DNA from: Enterobacteria phage XTG1
Length of the DNA: 64,000 bases
Sequence record: KT184316.1
Reading direction: 5' to 3' (one strand)
The position numbers and the translations under genes were made by a program. Below are positions 8,877-14,760 of this stretch, one piece after another; the first letter of the stretch is position 1; each line of letters opens with the position of its first letter. The notes under the pieces are model-generated. The model saw nothing but the letters and a program-made list of their open reading frames with translations. It did not search any database and had not been told where the DNA came from.

Positions 8877-9065
8877 TCAACAACTTTCTAATAAAGTTTT
8901 ATGAAGATTTTGCTTAACAACCCGCCTCACATGCCTATGCTCTTTCTTAATAAAGAGTGACCTCTTCTTGATAGAGCGCCTATTCTTGTAAGTATTACTA
9001 GGATACTTATCATGAACCGGACAACAACTCCCCGGATTTGTAAACTTGATAATCTCTCTTTTCAC
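8877..9065 (-). CDS. Hypothetical small basic protein
   Basis: 62-aa ORF, Lys/Arg-rich. Confidence 0.3.
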   Translation of the reverse strand: MKREIIKFTNPGSCCPVHDKYPSNTYKNRRSIKKRSLFIKKEHRHVRRVVKQNLHKTLLESC

Positions 9066-10165
9066 TATTCATAATCCCTAATAACTAGCCCGACAGGGAA
9101 CTGTAAAGAACCCTTACGAGTCATCTTCTGGAACTGTACCGTTAAAGGTTTCCCGATAAACTCTTCAGGATGCTCAGCAAGATACTGTTTCTTCTCATGA
9201 GTAGTCTTCCATGAGACATCTACAAAGACGTTAGGAAGAGTCTCTACAACGAACTTACCGTGGCCACGCTTATCAGTCTTTACACCAGTCACTTTAAACT
9301 CTTCAGTGTGCATCTTCTTGTGCTTAATCAAGAAGTATGAACGGTGACAACACTCATAGAATGAGTCTTCAGAGATTGAACGGTACATTGCACCTTCAAA
9401 CTTAGCCTCAACCCACTTATCATGAGCTTCATCAAATTCTTCCCAAGAGTTCACACGGATAGTCTGTACAGGAACCACTCTACAGGTATCACCAAGCTCA
9501 ACAATGGGTGAATTATCAATAACTTCACGACGCTCAGGCCAAGATTTTGAATTGTCACAGATATCATACCAGTAGAATTTAAGAAGGTGGCGGTCTGGAT
9601 TGTCAGCATTCTTAATCATAGAGACAATATCTTCTAAGTCCCAACCATGAGCATAAATCTCACCATCAAAGTCTTCAACTTGTGGATGTAATTTAAGCAA
9701 CAAAAGCAAATCTGGAATTAGTTCTGCTGGAACGTTGTAAACAGTATTCTCACGAGAATAAGCCGTGAAGTTAACTAAATCAGCATCTCTTGAAATTCTA
9801 CAACGTACACCATCCAGTTTCGGTTGAGCATCAGCAGGGAACTTCAGATACTTTGCATGACTAACCTTTGCAGCATCATGAGCAAGCTGTACACCTACCT
9901 TCTCAGTATTCTGTGCAGACTCTTTTGTGTAAGCATAACCTTTACGGTCAACTTGCTTTTTATACTTAGCAGCAACTTCAAAGAGAGCTTGCTGTTCAGC
10001 ATTACGCTCATTCTTTTTACCGATGTTCTTAGGCTCTGCTGTGTACTCTTCAAACATCATCTTACCATTTTCTTTACCATAGGTTGTAATAACTTTGTCA
10101 CCTACAGCAACGCATGACCAGACGTTGAAGGAACCATCTTTATTTTGTTTGTATAGGATTGTCAT
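9065..10165 (-). CDS. ATP-dependent DNA ligase
   Basis: KLDGVRCR adenylation motif I (KxDG); start placed at the second in-frame ATG (10165), which has SD agagg; track start 10201 has no SD. Start is uncertain. Confidence 0.8.
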   Translation of the reverse strand: MTILYKQNKDGSFNVWSCVAVGDKVITTYGKENGKMMFEEYTAEPKNIGKKNERNAEQQALFEVAAKYKKQVDRKGYAYTKESAQNTEKVGVQLAHDAAKVSHAKYLKFPADAQPKLDGVRCRISRDADLVNFTAYSRENTVYNVPAELIPDLLLLLKLHPQVEDFDGEIYAHGWDLEDIVSMIKNADNPDRHLLKFYWYDICDNSKSWPERREVIDNSPIVELGDTCRVVPVQTIRVNSWEEFDEAHDKWVEAKFEGAMYRSISEDSFYECCHRSYFLIKHKKMHTEEFKVTGVKTDKRGHGKFVVETLPNVFVDVSWKTTHEKKQYLAEHPEEFIGKPLTVQFQKMTRKGSLQFPVGLVIRDYE

Positions 10166-10358
10166 TTTTAACCTCTGAGTGATACCAAGTATTGCAAGCA
10201 TTACATGCGTAAAGCTCTAAGTCATTTTTATCTGGTTTATGGAAACAGTTTGACCCACAACGACACCGGAATAGCTTACCATCAACACGAAGAATAAATG
10301 TTTCAAGCTCACCATCTTCTGTAAGAACTGCGTTCTTAAATTTATCTTCTACAGTCAT
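10140..10358 (-). CDS. Small zinc-finger protein
   Basis: 72 aa; CRCGSNC…CNACN cysteine cluster. Confidence 0.4.
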   Translation of the reverse strand: MTVEDKFKNAVLTEDGELETFILRVDGKLFRCRCGSNCFHKPDKNDLELYACNACNTWYHSEVKNDNPIQTK

Positions 10359-10612
10359 TTTCTCTTACCACCAATCTCTACGTCGATAACTTGAACATCG
10401 CCAGCAACATCAAACTTATGAATGATGCTTTCAACAGTGTAAGTCCAACCATCAATGCGAACCAACTCACCTTCTCGTGGGACGATTGGATTACGTTGAG
10501 CTACGGTTGTAGTGGAGTGAACAACATCATAACAATAGATGTAGTTTACTGAGACTTCCATCGTGAAAACCTCACTCAATAACCGTAGTGTGTGATTGTC
10601 CATTTTTGCCAT
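10355..10612 (-). CDS. Hypothetical protein
   Basis: 85-aa ORF, 4-nt overlap with downstream gene. Confidence 0.35.
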   Translation of the reverse strand: MAKMDNHTLRLLSEVFTMEVSVNYIYCYDVVHSTTTVAQRNPIVPREGELVRIDGWTYTVESIIHKFDVAGDVQVIDVEIGGKRK

Positions 10613-10808
10613 AGCTGTAAGATGTTGTTGTTTGAGAATTTGGACATCTTACAACAACAATATCTCTGCTTATAGCATCACCATGTAACTTGTATACTCT
10701 GCAATCTTGCATCTCTGGTGGGAGGCTGTAAGAAGCATTTTTATCTTCATAAGAAGGGTTGCAGCCAGATAGAAAAATAACACCAAGCGCAATTACTACT
10801 TTCCACAT
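10572..10808 (-). CDS. Small lipoprotein
   Basis: Signal peptide with lipobox (…VIALGVIFLSGCNPS); start placed at MWKV (10808). Confidence 0.5.
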   Translation of the reverse strand: MWKVVIALGVIFLSGCNPSYEDKNASYSLPPEMQDCRVYKLHGDAISRDIVVVRCPNSQTTTSYSYGKNGQSHTTVIE

Positions 10809-11465
10809 AACACTTCTCCTATTACTGTTCACGATGCTCTACTTCTCTGTATGTACGTCGATAATGAATGATAAGTGGTGCTAATTCATTGCTTTTAACA
10901 TTTGAACGTAACAGTTGCCAGTCAAAACCTTTACCAACTCTTCCATATAAATTAAAAAACTTAACTTTGCGTTTCATTTTCGGTATCCCCAATATTCAGA
11001 AGTCAATACTAATGCGTTCACCCTTAAGGACTCCAGTGCGGTCTCTTGCAATCTTGCCGTCAACAATAAGTATATGTGCAGCCCTTAAAGAGTCACCATT
11101 AAAAGCTTTTACGAACTTACTAGGCATCACTACAATGGACATCTCCTGAATCAACTCTGGAGTATAGCAGTTGTCGTGAAGTTGCTGAATAACGTCTGCA
11201 AGTGTCATTTTTGATGTCTCCAATACTCAATGTCAATAAGTTCTTGTGCAATGCTTTTCAGATTACCTTTCAAGAAAACCTTCTCAGAACCAGAAAGAGA
11301 TGAATTGTCAATTAACCTGTTCATTCTCTCAAACAATTTCTGTTTACGGTTCTTGATAGTTTCCTTTGAAGCACCTTTCATCATTGCTGCATGGGTTCTT
11401 CCACGGTGGCTCATAAGCCCTCCTATACAAGATACAGCATAAGGTACTCTTCCCTGAGCACCTTG

Positions 11466-11990
11466 TCAACTTAGTTTTGCAAACTCTCCGTGGAGTTTTA
11501 CAGCAGCTTCACAGTAAGCTTTATGGGCTTCTTCTGGTGTATCAAACATACCAAGATGATAGTTTTTACCTTGTAAACGTATCATTGCTCTAAACCTTTT
11601 GCTTATCTTCTGTACACCTTTTGGCAACCCAGATGGGGACTTTCTTGAACGATTGCAAGAGTTTTGTGAAGCTGTACAAACCCTTAAATTCAAGTACCTA
11701 TTGTCCCAACCGTCCCCATTCTTATGGTCAACCTGTAAGTTTTTATCAGGTAGATAGCCATCCACATATAGTATTGCTAGACGGTTAGCTTGGTAGCCTT
11801 TACCATCAAGCAATAACTGAACAGACTTGTGACCATCTGTGTTTATCCTATAATTTCCTGCCTTTTTGCCTCCAAAACGAGAGTTGAAGTTCTTATTGCC
11901 TCGTGATACCGGCTCTCTAAACTTCCAAGTAAAGACCCCTGTTTCGGGGTCGTAGTCCAATAGCTCCTTAAGACGAATTTCTGTAATCAT
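11466..11990 (-). CDS. HNH homing endonuclease with AP2-like DNA-binding domain
   Basis: HNH motif DHKNGDGWDNRYLNLRVCTASQN; C-terminal KRFRAMIRLQGKNYHLGMFDTPEEAHKAY AP2-like; abuts the 3' end of the DNA polymerase gene. Confidence 0.7.
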   Translation of the reverse strand: MITEIRLKELLDYDPETGVFTWKFREPVSRGNKNFNSRFGGKKAGNYRINTDGHKSVQLLLDGKGYQANRLAILYVDGYLPDKNLQVDHKNGDGWDNRYLNLRVCTASQNSCNRSRKSPSGLPKGVQKISKRFRAMIRLQGKNYHLGMFDTPEEAHKAYCEAAVKLHGEFAKLS

Positions 11991-12000
11991 TTCAATACCA

Positions 12001-14700
12001 TCAATGTACTTCCAACCAGCTCTTACCAACCTTTCCTGTGCCAGTTACAAGCGTCTCACTCTTCAAACCTAAATTCTTAGATGCCTGACCATACATCCAG
12101 TCAGTTATGGCTTTAACTTCTTGAGTCATACTTTCTGGGCATTCCCAACTGTTTTCATCGTGGTATGCCAGCAAAAGCCTAGCACCGATTGCTGGTTTTC
12201 GTCCATTTAATTTTGTCAATCCTTCTTCACATGTTCTTCTACAAGCAAGGTTAATCGCCTCATTTTGAATCTGAGCCTCTGAACCCATGAGCAAATAATT
12301 CAATAGCTTATGTGGAGATTTACACCACAACCAAGCTCCAGCAACCTTTACAAAACCCCCTTTAGAAATTGCAGCAGTCTTACCAAATACCTCTTCAAGT
12401 GCCTTTTTAGTTGCTTTGTAGTCAGCTTCCAAGTCATCTAGCAACTTCTTAATTTTAGGTAAACGAATAAAGTAAGTCTGTTTAGTCAGTGCACCTTCCT
12501 GAGTAGTTGCAGCTTTAATAGTTTTAGCAAACTTCTCATCACCTGCACCAAACAGCAGTGCATAGATACCATTCTTAGCTTTCTTACGACCTTTACTAAT
12601 CTCATGAAGAAGATTCTCATCCTGCGTTGCACGACAAGTTAAGATATCCTGCTCATCGTTCAAGCTAAAGTAGATACTGTTCAGTGTATGTGCATCAGTC
12701 CCTGAATAGACAACGTACAGGTCATTCTCAGAGTCATAGCGAAGGTACTTATCAATCTCTGGGTTGAGGTACTCATCAAAATGTTTGCAGTAATAGCGTC
12801 CATCTTCTTGACGAATGAACTCAATTTCTTCTTTACCTTGCGTCACCGCTTTGGTGAAGTCTTTATCACCCATAAAGTTACAAAGCAGAACTAGCTGGGC
12901 TGAGTTCATATCTACAGAGACAACGTTAGTACCTTCCTCACAAATCCACACTGCCCTCATTGGTTCCCCATAGACAGCAGCACCAGACGGTACGTTTACA
13001 ATACCATATTGTGTCATACGTCCAGTTGAAGTACCAAACACCATTGCACCAGCACTAAGGCGACCATCAGGACGAATCTGGTTCAACCAACCTTTTTCAT
13101 CATCCTTTGAGTTCTCAATAGTTCTGCGTCGGTGCATCAAAGTATAGTACTTAGCAATCTTCTGTCCAAGCTCACCTTCAATCGTATCATAAGATGATTC
13201 AGTAAGTTTTGGTGAAGTACGGATTAAGCAAGGCTCAAGCAAATCTGTGTACTTCTTCACAGACCAGTTATGCTCAATGTACTGAACACCTTCATGTTCA
13301 ACATAACTTAAACCACAACGTTCTACCATCTCCTGCCACTTAGGATGTTTTGTAATCATCTTTTTATTGTCTTTGAAACGACAAACTTTGACAGGGCGAC
13401 CGTCTGAGTCTTTCTTGTAGTTCCAGTCATCTGGAATCCAACCAACTGATTTCAAGTAGTCTTTAACAACTGCTACCTGAGTCATACGAGAAACTTCAAA
13501 CTCAATTGGTGTATATGGTGCATCAATCAAACCCGTGTAGCGACTTGACTCAAGTTCAAAGTGGTTAACAACGTGGCTGTTATAGTACTTCACGGTTTTG
13601 ACTGTTTTTACTGGCTTCCAGTCTTTGCATTTCTTACCAATCTTTGCGTTCAACTCATTGCAAATTGCACGAGCATCCTTCATTGCTACAAAGCCTTCCT
13701 TGTACTCTTCACCAGTTACAGAGTTGGTTGGTGTATAGCAATTTCTCTTTTCAATGTTAAAAATCTTTGTAGTTGGCTTACCAAATGGCTTGATTTCATA
13801 TGTCTGCATCTCACCATTACGTACCTGCTGACGATACTTTGTCTTAGGGTACTTGGTAATTCTTTTCAGTCCATCTGCATGACCAAATGCTTCAACATAC
13901 TCATTCCAAGCCTTTGCAAACTCTTCTCCAGTGACTTTACCTTTGGTCTTAATAGTTGGAGGTAGATGTGGTTCAACCTCTGAAGCAAGCTCATTAGTCA
14001 ACTTGTCAAGTTCCTTTACATGGAACTCCATAAGCTCTTTATCAGCTTTCCAGCCATTGATAGCTTGTTGACTCATCCAGAAAGATGTTTCTTTAGCTCG
14101 CATGTAGGTTTCATAAGTGTCTATGCCACACTTCTTAAGCTTCAGGTATTCATTATCCAGTGCACGTTTAGTTTTGGCGTTAATACGGATATCTTCTACA
14201 ACACGAGTGAAGATTTCTGCATTCCACACACCCCAATGTTCAATCTCTGGTTTACGAACACCAACACGAGCACCCCATGCAGCCAAACCATGAGCACCTT
14301 TATAACCCTTTGGAGTTGGTCTATCCATCCACTGAACACGAGACTGGATAAGAGAATCCTGAAAGAAATTACTCCACGGTTTACACTTTGGATTATCAAA
14401 GTTCCATAAATCAGGTGCAATGTGATTGAAAACCCACCAGTCATAACCGAGACCATTGTGAATGCAAAGACGTTTTGCCTTTAACGCAAACTCAATACCT
14501 TCACGTAAGCCACCCTTAATATACTTGGTATACTTGTGACCGAGGATAGGCTCATCTGTAAAGACCCACACAGGCGGCTCTTCATCGTCAGATTTATAGT
14601 CTGCAAAAGCCATTACGTGCACTTTAGTGAACTCAAGGAGTAAACCATCAGTTTCTGTATCACCAACTAAATGTAAGTTTTTAAAATCTACGTTTTCCAT
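12001..14700 (-). CDS. DNA polymerase, family A (Pol I/T7-like) with 3'-5' exonuclease domain
   Basis: Exo I motif GDTETDGL; Pol A motif A (DMNSAQLVLL), motif B (KAKNGIYALLFGAG), motif C (YHDE); start placed at MENV (14700) with SD gagggag. Confidence 0.9.
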   Translation of the reverse strand: MENVDFKNLHLVGDTETDGLLLEFTKVHVMAFADYKSDDEEPPVWVFTDEPILGHKYTKYIKGGLREGIEFALKAKRLCIHNGLGYDWWVFNHIAPDLWNFDNPKCKPWSNFFQDSLIQSRVQWMDRPTPKGYKGAHGLAAWGARVGVRKPEIEHWGVWNAEIFTRVVEDIRINAKTKRALDNEYLKLKKCGIDTYETYMRAKETSFWMSQQAINGWKADKELMEFHVKELDKLTNELASEVEPHLPPTIKTKGKVTGEEFAKAWNEYVEAFGHADGLKRITKYPKTKYRQQVRNGEMQTYEIKPFGKPTTKIFNIEKRNCYTPTNSVTGEEYKEGFVAMKDARAICNELNAKIGKKCKDWKPVKTVKTVKYYNSHVVNHFELESSRYTGLIDAPYTPIEFEVSRMTQVAVVKDYLKSVGWIPDDWNYKKDSDGRPVKVCRFKDNKKMITKHPKWQEMVERCGLSYVEHEGVQYIEHNWSVKKYTDLLEPCLIRTSPKLTESSYDTIEGELGQKIAKYYTLMHRRRTIENSKDDEKGWLNQIRPDGRLSAGAMVFGTSTGRMTQYGIVNVPSGAAVYGEPMRAVWICEEGTNVVSVDMNSAQLVLLCNFMGDKDFTKAVTQGKEEIEFIRQEDGRYYCKHFDEYLNPEIDKYLRYDSENDLYVVYSGTDAHTLNSIYFSLNDEQDILTCRATQDENLLHEISKGRKKAKNGIYALLFGAGDEKFAKTIKAATTQEGALTKQTYFIRLPKIKKLLDDLEADYKATKKALEEVFGKTAAISKGGFVKVAGAWLWCKSPHKLLNYLLMGSEAQIQNEAINLACRRTCEEGLTKLNGRKPAIGARLLLAYHDENSWECPESMTQEVKAITDWMYGQASKNLGLKSETLVTGTGKVGKSWLEVH

Positions 14701-14760
14701 TTTTACTCCCTCTAAAATCATTAACCTCATACATTACTGCAAAAAATTATAAAAAGCAAG

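Follow-up and report, generated by a model that had tools for sequence, protein, structure and literature searches.

Llp of phage T5 and Cor of phages T1, phi80, N15 and HK022 are superinfection-exclusion proteins and belong to a class of lipoproteins of about 75–78 amino acids (aa) that carry a lipobox and two further cysteines, and Llp is made early. The o-spanins (Rz1-type) are likewise small lipoproteins of phages with Gram-negative hosts, and they have an i-spanin partner whose gene is adjacent or overlapping. Imm and Sp (Spackle) are small early envelope proteins of the virulent phage T4 which, in work by Lu and Henning from 1994, reportedly work whatever the receptor; neither is a lipoprotein, Imm being integral to the inner membrane and Sp a soluble, helical protein of the periplasm. 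Ltp of the Streptococcus thermophilus phage TP-J34 is a lipoprotein on the outer face of the cytoplasmic membrane, where it blocks DNA injection after adsorption. Here we analysed a gene for a 78-aa prolipoprotein at 10572..10808 (minus strand, stop codon included) in a 64,000-nucleotide (nt) stretch of Enterobacteria phage XTG1 (KT184316.1), hereafter the window, which comes from a Felix O1-type myovirus of the genus Felixounavirus. It is almost certainly a real gene for a lipoprotein of the DUF4884 family, an ordinary gene of a kind already catalogued as a DUF and a PHROG family.

The coding sequence, taken from a list of open reading frames (ORFs) and their translations, runs from an ATG at 10808-10806 to a TGA at 10574-10572 and encodes 78 aa (MWKVVIALGVIFLSGC followed by NPSYEDKNASYSLPPEMQDCRVYKLHGDAISRDIVVVRCPNSQTTTSYSYGKNGQSHTTVIE). 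Reading of the upstream sequence revealed a Shine-Dalgarno element, AGGAG, at 10816..10820 (minus strand), located in the 13-nt gap that follows the TAA stop of the upstream gene (10824-10822). Because this element lies 7 nt upstream of the ATG at 10808, that start is preferred over an in-frame GTG at 10832. At the other end, the stop codon is overlapped by the GAGG of the next gene. An earlier note on this stretch, made from its letters and a list of its ORFs, had proposed a precursor of roughly 78 aa with the lipobox FLSGC, embedded in a replication-gene block. Its coordinates, 10572-10808, are exact, with the minus strand to be added. The lipobox is present as F12-L13-S14-G15-C16 and satisfies the PROSITE rule PS51257, and the gene does lie between those for DNA polymerase and DNA ligase, on the same strand.

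The signal peptide comprises residues 1-15 (MWKVVIALGVIFLSG; 10764..10808, minus strand), with K3 in its n-region and VVIALGVIF as its core. The lipobox L13-S14-G15-C16 (10761..10772, minus strand) ends in Cys16, which is the first residue of the mature protein and the predicted site of diacylglyceryl and acyl attachment; the residue at +2 is Asn. By direct reading, K3 falls within the first seven residues, positions 6-11 are uncharged and the Cys is at 16, as PS51257 prescribes. The protein thus combines a positive n-region, a hydrophobic core, the pattern [LVI][ASTVI][GAS]C and a Cys in the position range 15-35. A six-frame lipobox scan of the 64-kb window picked out three separate ORFs: this gene (entered once per candidate start), an o-spanin described below, and one unsupported short ORF with a GTG start.

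The protein matched phrog_902, a family of function unknown, over residues 1-76 (E 1.3e-16), and a family hidden Markov model (HMM) built here gave 108 bits (E 1.5e-32) for what is a single copy in the window. A profile search of a 5.8-billion-protein collection retrieved 333 proteins. An exhaustive HMMER search of 1.84 billion representatives, each standing for a cluster at 50% identity, retrieved 1,184 at E<=1e-3, of which 643 reached E<=1e-10, or about 1,200 clusters, nearly all of whose members are 75-110 aa long. Nearly every listed homologue bears a precomputed PF16225 (DUF4884) label, the exceptions being P0013, P0014 and P0031. The Pfam assignment is that of the precomputed table, as our local copy of Pfam-A did not return DUF4884 for any of 117 members; the version numbers (PF08139.18 in the table,.17 locally) suggest that the table was made with a newer Pfam in which DUF4884 has been widened. 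No family match was obtained with the local Pfam, NCBIfam and PADLOC models.

Within Felixounavirus the gene is the orthologue of ORF213 of Felix O1 and gp042 of Salmonella phage Mushroom, annotated there as 'unknown' or 'hypothetical', and the protein sequence is already public, being 100% identical in Felixounavirus LF82P3. The 3.1 kb surrounding the gene matched 259 phage records at 80-99% identity, nearly all of them Felixounaviruses of Escherichia, Salmonella, Shigella and Citrobacter.

Conservation in this family is concentrated on a few residues. Cys16 is invariant in family alignments of 99 and of 117 sequences, as are Cys36, Cys55 and Pro56, while Leu29-Pro30, Val53, Asn57 and Lys68 are nearly invariant. 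The 'LP' motif that opens the conserved core (L29-P30, codons 10719..10724, minus strand) is invariant in alignment A1 and present in at least 90% of A2. The first Cys of the mature core, Cys36 (codon 10701..10703, minus strand), is an invariant column in the motif D-C-K/R-I/V-Y, and Cys55-Pro56 (codons 10641..10646, minus strand) are the invariant columns of VVRCPNS. In the XTG1 protein these core motifs read L29 P30, D35 C36 R37 V38 Y39 and V52 V53 R54 C55 P56 N57 S58. They fit a family consensus of lipobox, a linker of about 12 residues, Y-x-LP-x-G/E-L-x-DC-K-I-Y, about 12 further residues, and VVRCPNS-x-T-x-T ... GK. The ratio of nonsynonymous to synonymous substitution rates (dN/dS) was 0.049 when the mature part was compared with its Mushroom orthologue (dS 0.84) and 0 for that of phage heid (dS 0.14), with no amino-acid changes in the latter case.

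These data bear on whether the ORF is a chance product or a non-functional remnant that merely resembles a lipoprotein. Such a reading could draw on frameshifted 64-aa versions in some metagenomic contigs, and on several deposited genomes in which the gene is left unannotated or given a different start. It is contradicted by the dN/dS of 0.05, the strong Shine-Dalgarno sequence and the invariance of the lipid-bearing Cys, the Cys pair and the Pro across about 1,200 clusters. The conservation data effectively refute it, and we give it next to no weight.

The lipoprotein signal is retained as well. Of the 184 collected homologues with the core motif, 181 have a lipobox, despite their differing signal peptides, and Pfam LPAM_1 matches eight family members. 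Orthologue signal peptides vary (MWKVVIALGVIFLSGC, MNNKVKSCVKAMVALVVIFLAGC and MLKLLTLVMTILLVGC; beginnings such as MWK.., MNNKVKSCVK.. and MLKLL..), with the lipobox kept in all; its variants in the family include LTGC, LAGC, LVGC, LTAC and LSGC. The +2 residue is variable. Asp is commonest (53/181), followed by Glu, Ser, Asn, Thr and Gly. Among phages of enterobacteria, the sequence from the lipid-bearing Cys onward is CDQ in W70 and A7_1, CDA in CR3, POP15, BF17 and a Klebsiella phage, and CNP in the Felix group; W70, A7_1 and BF17 are phages of E. coli.

Two kinds of length variant were seen among the homologues. P0106, P0113, P0117, P0120 and others (107-137 aa) carry, after a Pro/Thr-rich spacer, a C-terminal extension that holds one to three copies of (V/I)(D/N)G(K/E)(T/S)Y(K/R) and has no Pfam match. 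The metagenomic relatives P0013 and P0014 are 64 aa long; they share the first 44-46 residues and then continue in a different frame (…CCCQMSKLSNNNIL).

An AlphaFold2 model of the mature part (63 aa; 10575..10763, minus strand), built on the 117-sequence alignment, is moderately confident (mean predicted local distance difference test, pLDDT, 74.4). It predicts a linker of about 12 residues followed by a small five-stranded beta domain, with strands at mature residues 4-7, 22-27, 35-39, 44-51 and 54-61. In the model, Cys36 immediately precedes strand 22-27 and Cys55 immediately follows strand 35-39, at the two ends of a hairpin. Both Cys are invariant and flank this predicted hairpin, and they most likely form a disulphide, made by DsbA, that staples the hairpin ends; such a bond would fit a periplasmic location. 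A sequence search of the PDB with the family profile gave signal-peptide matches only, and fold comparison of the model matched neither the Llp fold (PDB 8A60 chain B) nor any other.

On the strength of the lipobox and the small size, the earlier note had proposed the protein as a candidate for superinfection exclusion in the manner of Llp or Cor. The part of this proposal that stands is a secreted lipoprotein made with early or replication genes, and envelope protection or superinfection exclusion in some form is our leading, low-confidence guess; the receptor block of Llp/Cor type is not supported. A receptor-masking lipoprotein would be anchored in the outer membrane's inner leaflet and would bind and inactivate the phage's own receptor from the periplasmic side; superinfection would thereby be averted, and progeny would not be lost on cell debris. 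The design does agree with this: with about 77 aa in the precursor, the protein falls into the Llp/Cor size class, and like Llp and Cor it has a lipobox plus two more Cys. The Felix +2 residue is not Asp and is thus compatible with outer-membrane sorting, and the gene context is of early type, as for llp.

The sequences do not bear out a relationship. T5 Llp matches phrog_1119, 'Cor superinfection exclusion protein' (E 1.1e-19), a family for which the XTG1 protein gave no match, and the Cor/Llp proteins lack the PF16225 label. A first hhalign comparison with Llp returned a probability of 80%, with an alignment consisting of the signal peptide and a short C-x-x-Y stretch. When mature parts only were compared, the probability was 1.6% against Llp and 0.4% (score 10.8) against a 25-sequence Cor/Llp profile, in which T1 Cor and T5 Llp were combined with 23 relatives from databases; that score falls inside the range of 6-16 given by 30 column-shuffled controls. 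The weak similarity is a signal-peptide effect, and homology to T5 Llp was rejected as an artefact on the basis of the mature-only comparisons and shuffled controls. The cysteines are also differently spaced, since Llp and Cor pair a Cys near the mature start with one near the C-terminus, whereas the predicted partner of Cys36 lies 19 residues downstream, and the modelled fold is unlike that of 8A60. Llp occurs in 34 records, all at >=90% identity, whereas the family of the XTG1 protein occurs in 585 records from many phage families. Membership of the Llp/Cor group is rejected.

Gene position and receptor differ as well. Llp and Cor genes adjoin those for the tail or for receptor binding, and the Cor gene of T1 lies directly after the tail genes. 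Cassettes with cor are located downstream of the tail-fibre cluster and track the use of FhuA or BtuB, and in the BASEL collection Cor is found in 20 phages, all Drexlerviridae, Dhillonvirus, Markadamsvirinae or Tempevirinae (PMC13164509). The XTG1 gene is placed between polymerase and ligase, not adjacent to tail or receptor-binding genes, and in the related phage heid the tail-fibre genes are about 8 kb distant. Felixounavirus isolates depend on the core oligosaccharide of lipopolysaccharide (LPS), and not on a protein channel such as FhuA or BtuB (PMC13196588). Because the LPS core is an outer-leaflet glycolipid, a periplasmic lipoprotein cannot plug this receptor.

In E. coli, the '+2 rule' holds that Asp at +2 keeps a lipoprotein in the inner membrane. 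By this rule the Felix version is predicted to undergo Lol-dependent sorting to the outer membrane. The many Asp(+2) relatives are predicted to be retained in the inner membrane, from which a protein on a 12-residue tether could not reach an outer-membrane channel. Taken with the sequence, fold, position and receptor results above, and with a family that spans phages with unrelated receptors, this makes a receptor-plug mechanism improbable.

Two annotations in other phages touch on the same question. In the T1-like phage Henu8, the genome table lists a 'DUF4884 domain-containing protein' (ORF6, 86 aa) in the early region and a 'Cor superinfection exclusion protein' (ORF45) adjoining the tail genes (PMC12210894, Table 2). 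If the former is a true family member, one phage carries both lipoproteins, which would count against receptor masking; the co-occurrence was not confirmed by sequence, with no family member found in T1 or in the first 8 kb of phage grams. On the other side, one jumbo-phage record calls its homologue a 'lytic conversion lipoprotein', and that homologue matches phrog_1119 weakly (E 9e-4). In Escherichia phage fEgEco12 (PP777464.1; stretch L014, 2501-2752 and 3114-3389) two genes both bear this name. One, g526, is a DUF4884 homologue, and the other, g528, two genes away, encodes an unrelated Cys-rich lipoprotein of phrog_31263. The label appears to come from signal-peptide similarity. In jumbo phages several small lipoprotein genes are clustered in one early region.

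To determine how widely the family is distributed, phage and bacterial collections were searched. Searches with tblastn found relatives in 585 phage records, of which the 196 at >=60% identity are Felix O1-type phages. The family groups comprise Felixounavirus, Straboviridae, Demerecviridae, Vequintavirinae, Stephanstirmvirinae, Asteriusvirus and Obolenskvirus. Carriers include the T4-like Aeromonas phages Ahp1, Aeh1 and phiAS5, the T5-like Vibrio phage JSF12 with a large set of 114-kb Vibrio phages, the Vequintavirinae W70, A7_1, CR3 and phiTE, Stephanstirmvirinae of Klebsiella, jumbo phages (Asteriusvirus and phages of Erwinia and Yersinia) and myoviruses of Acinetobacter. Their hosts include Vibrio, Aeromonas, Acinetobacter, Klebsiella and E. 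coli, and their tails and receptors differ while the core is conserved. All 20 of the family genome records that were opened belong to virulent phage groups with Gram-negative hosts. No T4-type coliphage was among the matches listed, in which the Straboviridae are Aeromonas phages only.

Bacterial collections yielded few matches. No DNA match was found in 5,426 complete E. coli genomes, and 72,556 plasmids yielded one. This match covers residues 1-41 at 49% identity and lies at 109453-109575 of NZ_CP062920.1 from Acinetobacter baumannii, a 113-kb 'plasmid' that may be a phage or phage-plasmid entered under that name. A search of 185,579 species genomes with the motif VVRCPNS[SQ]T, a narrow pattern that gives a partial census, found one locus, in Hylemonella gracilis ATCC 19624 (NZ_AEGR01000062.1; stretch L009, 5956-6234). 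This 92-aa copy stands in what looks like a genomic island, is convergent with a gene for a 488-aa secreted protein of endonuclease/exonuclease/phosphatase type (by eye only), and lies near another lipoprotein gene and a large ATPase-like gene.

In all carriers examined, the gene stands among small genes that share its direction, in runs of early or replication type. It follows the replicative helicase gene in Acinetobacter phage BP10 and stands two genes upstream of nrdC.11 in Aeh1 and Ahp1, where a NAMPT gene is also in the run. In Vibrio phage JSF12 the small-gene run lies upstream of, and ends at, thymidylate synthase and dihydrofolate reductase, and in W70, CR3, BF17 and the Klebsiella phage the gene is within small-gene arrays. 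In four phages a gene for a protein of about 100 aa overlaps the start of the family gene by 4 nt; as a conserved neighbour this candidate was rejected, the four upstream proteins being mutually unrelated. Metagenomic contigs likewise revealed no recurrent neighbour domain. Since the flanking genes are non-homologous between phages, the family gene behaves as a stand-alone accessory gene.

These observations are compatible with a pathway that we put forward tentatively, by analogy with described exclusion proteins. Following established lipoprotein biogenesis, the precursor would be exported by Sec, lipidated on Cys16 by Lgt and cleaved before Cys16 by signal peptidase II (LspA). Lnt and Lol sorting would then leave the 63-aa mature protein on its linker of about 12 residues at a periplasmic membrane face. 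Because it is made with replication genes, the protein would act in the envelope of an already infected cell. There the beta domain may attach to a conserved component of the periplasm or envelope, or to the apparatus with which a second phage penetrates, and stop infection at a post-adsorption step, giving receptor-independent exclusion or protection from lysis-from-without. A receptor-specific action is not expected, because phages whose hosts and tails are unrelated have the same core, and because the residue at +2 varies.

The described proteins that would be nearest in function are Imm, Sp and Ltp. The first two share with the XTG1 protein their small size and early envelope setting in a virulent phage, and the analogy is functional only, as there is no sequence or structural relation. 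The tethered design of Ltp would fit the Asp(+2) members of the family, and here too the likeness is functional: Ltp belongs to a temperate phage of a Gram-positive host and is folded as a helical repeat, unlike the XTG1 lipoprotein, and homology is not expected.

The same observations can also be read as a host-takeover or counter-defence function, in which the tethered beta domain inhibits or hijacks a conserved host envelope or periplasmic protein. The target could for instance be an enzyme (a nuclease, a protease or one of the cell wall) or a sensor (of envelope stress, or for abortive infection and sited in the membrane). Such a protein would benefit the current infection and leave later-arriving phages unaffected. 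Among the records examined the family is found in virulent phages only, it is absent from the E. coli genomes searched, its gene lies among early accessory genes, and it is under strong purifying selection, in place of the diversification of an arms race. That phages of distant Gammaproteobacteria have this core in common speaks for a host target that is conserved, and the Hylemonella copy stands beside a secreted EEP-family nuclease-like protein, a single anecdote. PADLOC and NCBIfam models, on the other hand, gave no match, and no conserved neighbour gene was found that would point to a pathway. A pairing with a Vs.1-like SLT protein, described below, also fails. We regard host takeover as possible and give it the same weight as exclusion.

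Several points weigh against receptor-independent exclusion as the role of this protein. It rests on analogy and elimination; sequence and structure searches found no relative of known function. Purifying selection and the absence from the E. coli genomes searched fit host takeover at least as well. Temperate phages, too, would profit from a general exclusion factor, and the family was not found in the prophage-bearing genomes searched, so that a lytic-cycle function fits at least as well. The frameshifted P0013 and P0014 indicate that the gene can be lost in some Felix-type phages. Membrane sorting is a prediction from the E. coli +2 rule, and the model is of moderate confidence as a whole, with pLDDT of 53-66 in its C-terminal third. 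Expression timing is deduced from gene order only: a promoter and terminator scan gave nothing above shuffled expectation, and a literature search found no Felixounavirus transcriptome, nor anything on the DUF4884/phrog_902 family or on Felixounavirus transcription timing.

The wider interest lies in the family. The XTG1 gene itself matters little, being identical or nearly so in nearly 200 deposited Felix O1-type genomes. The family comprises about 1,200 sequence clusters of a single small lipoprotein, which is under strong purifying selection and was found here in virulent phages that infect several Gammaproteobacteria. DUF4884 could represent a widespread, unrecognised class of envelope effectors of virulent phages, built on a disulphide-stapled mini beta domain that is tethered to one or other of the membrane faces of the periplasm. 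If so, its target would be a single conserved component of the host envelope or the DNA-delivery machinery of an incoming phage, and it would provide receptor-independent exclusion, or neutralise an envelope defence, across Felix-, T4-, T5- and rV5-like phages and jumbo phages. Phages of the Felix O1, rV5 and jumbo types are used in typing, biocontrol and therapy cocktails, and an early envelope-altering protein could affect the mutual interference of the phages in a cocktail. Annotation as 'Llp/Cor' or 'lytic conversion lipoprotein' from signal-peptide-driven matches is unsafe.

The window contains one other credible lipoprotein, an o-spanin, which bears on whether the DUF4884 protein could be a lysis component. 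The i-spanin (41810-42157, plus strand) is a 115-aa type II membrane protein with an N-terminal transmembrane segment that matches phrog_1152, 'Rz-like spanin' (E 1.4e-41). The o-spanin (42051-42317, plus strand; 88 aa) has the lipobox MSGC and matches phrog_4180 and, weakly, phrog_456. Together they form a spanin pair of the classical overlapped type at 41810-42317. A lysis role for the DUF4884 protein would make it an o-spanin-like or lysis-timing lipoprotein acting at the end of infection, and it does have the small-lipoprotein character of the o-spanin class; the Hylemonella homologue even matches phrog_456, 'Rz-like spanin', weakly through its N-terminal part (E 1.7e-5). The complete spanin pair already present speaks against this and led to rejection of an o-spanin identity. 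In addition, the gene has no adjacent or embedded transmembrane partner of the kind that o-spanins have, its neighbours being soluble and unrelated between phages. It lies in the replication block and not among the late genes, and the holin of the related phage heid is near the tail-fibre genes. We therefore consider a lysis role very improbable.

A further exported protein, at 40060-40608 (plus strand), is a 182-aa homologue of T4 Vs.1; it has a signal peptide of Sec type and matches SLT transglycosylase weakly (E 5.6e-4, which does not reach the Pfam cut-off). Its pairing with the lipoprotein was considered and rejected: Vs.1 homologues occur in 2,127 phage records, T2 and JS10 being among those listed, and both of these phages are absent from the listed matches of the lipoprotein family.

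The genes around the lipoprotein gene are all on the minus strand from polymerase to ligase, with short gaps or overlaps between them. Their order is polymerase (12001-14730; intact, 909 aa), HNH/AP2 homing endonuclease (11466-12029), three small genes, the lipoprotein gene, two small genes and ATP-dependent DNA ligase (9065-10201). The endonuclease gene comes directly after the polymerase gene, whose end it overlaps. The polymerase of Salmonella phage Mushroom is annotated in two pieces, gp036 and gp037; because of this split and the endonuclease found here, we regard the polymerase region as a hotspot for mobile endonucleases. Elsewhere in the window, a gene at 43314-44099 (plus strand) encodes a 261-aa protein with a Macro domain (Pfam E 1e-7), possibly an enzyme that binds or removes ADP-ribose, and it is a candidate for counter-defence.

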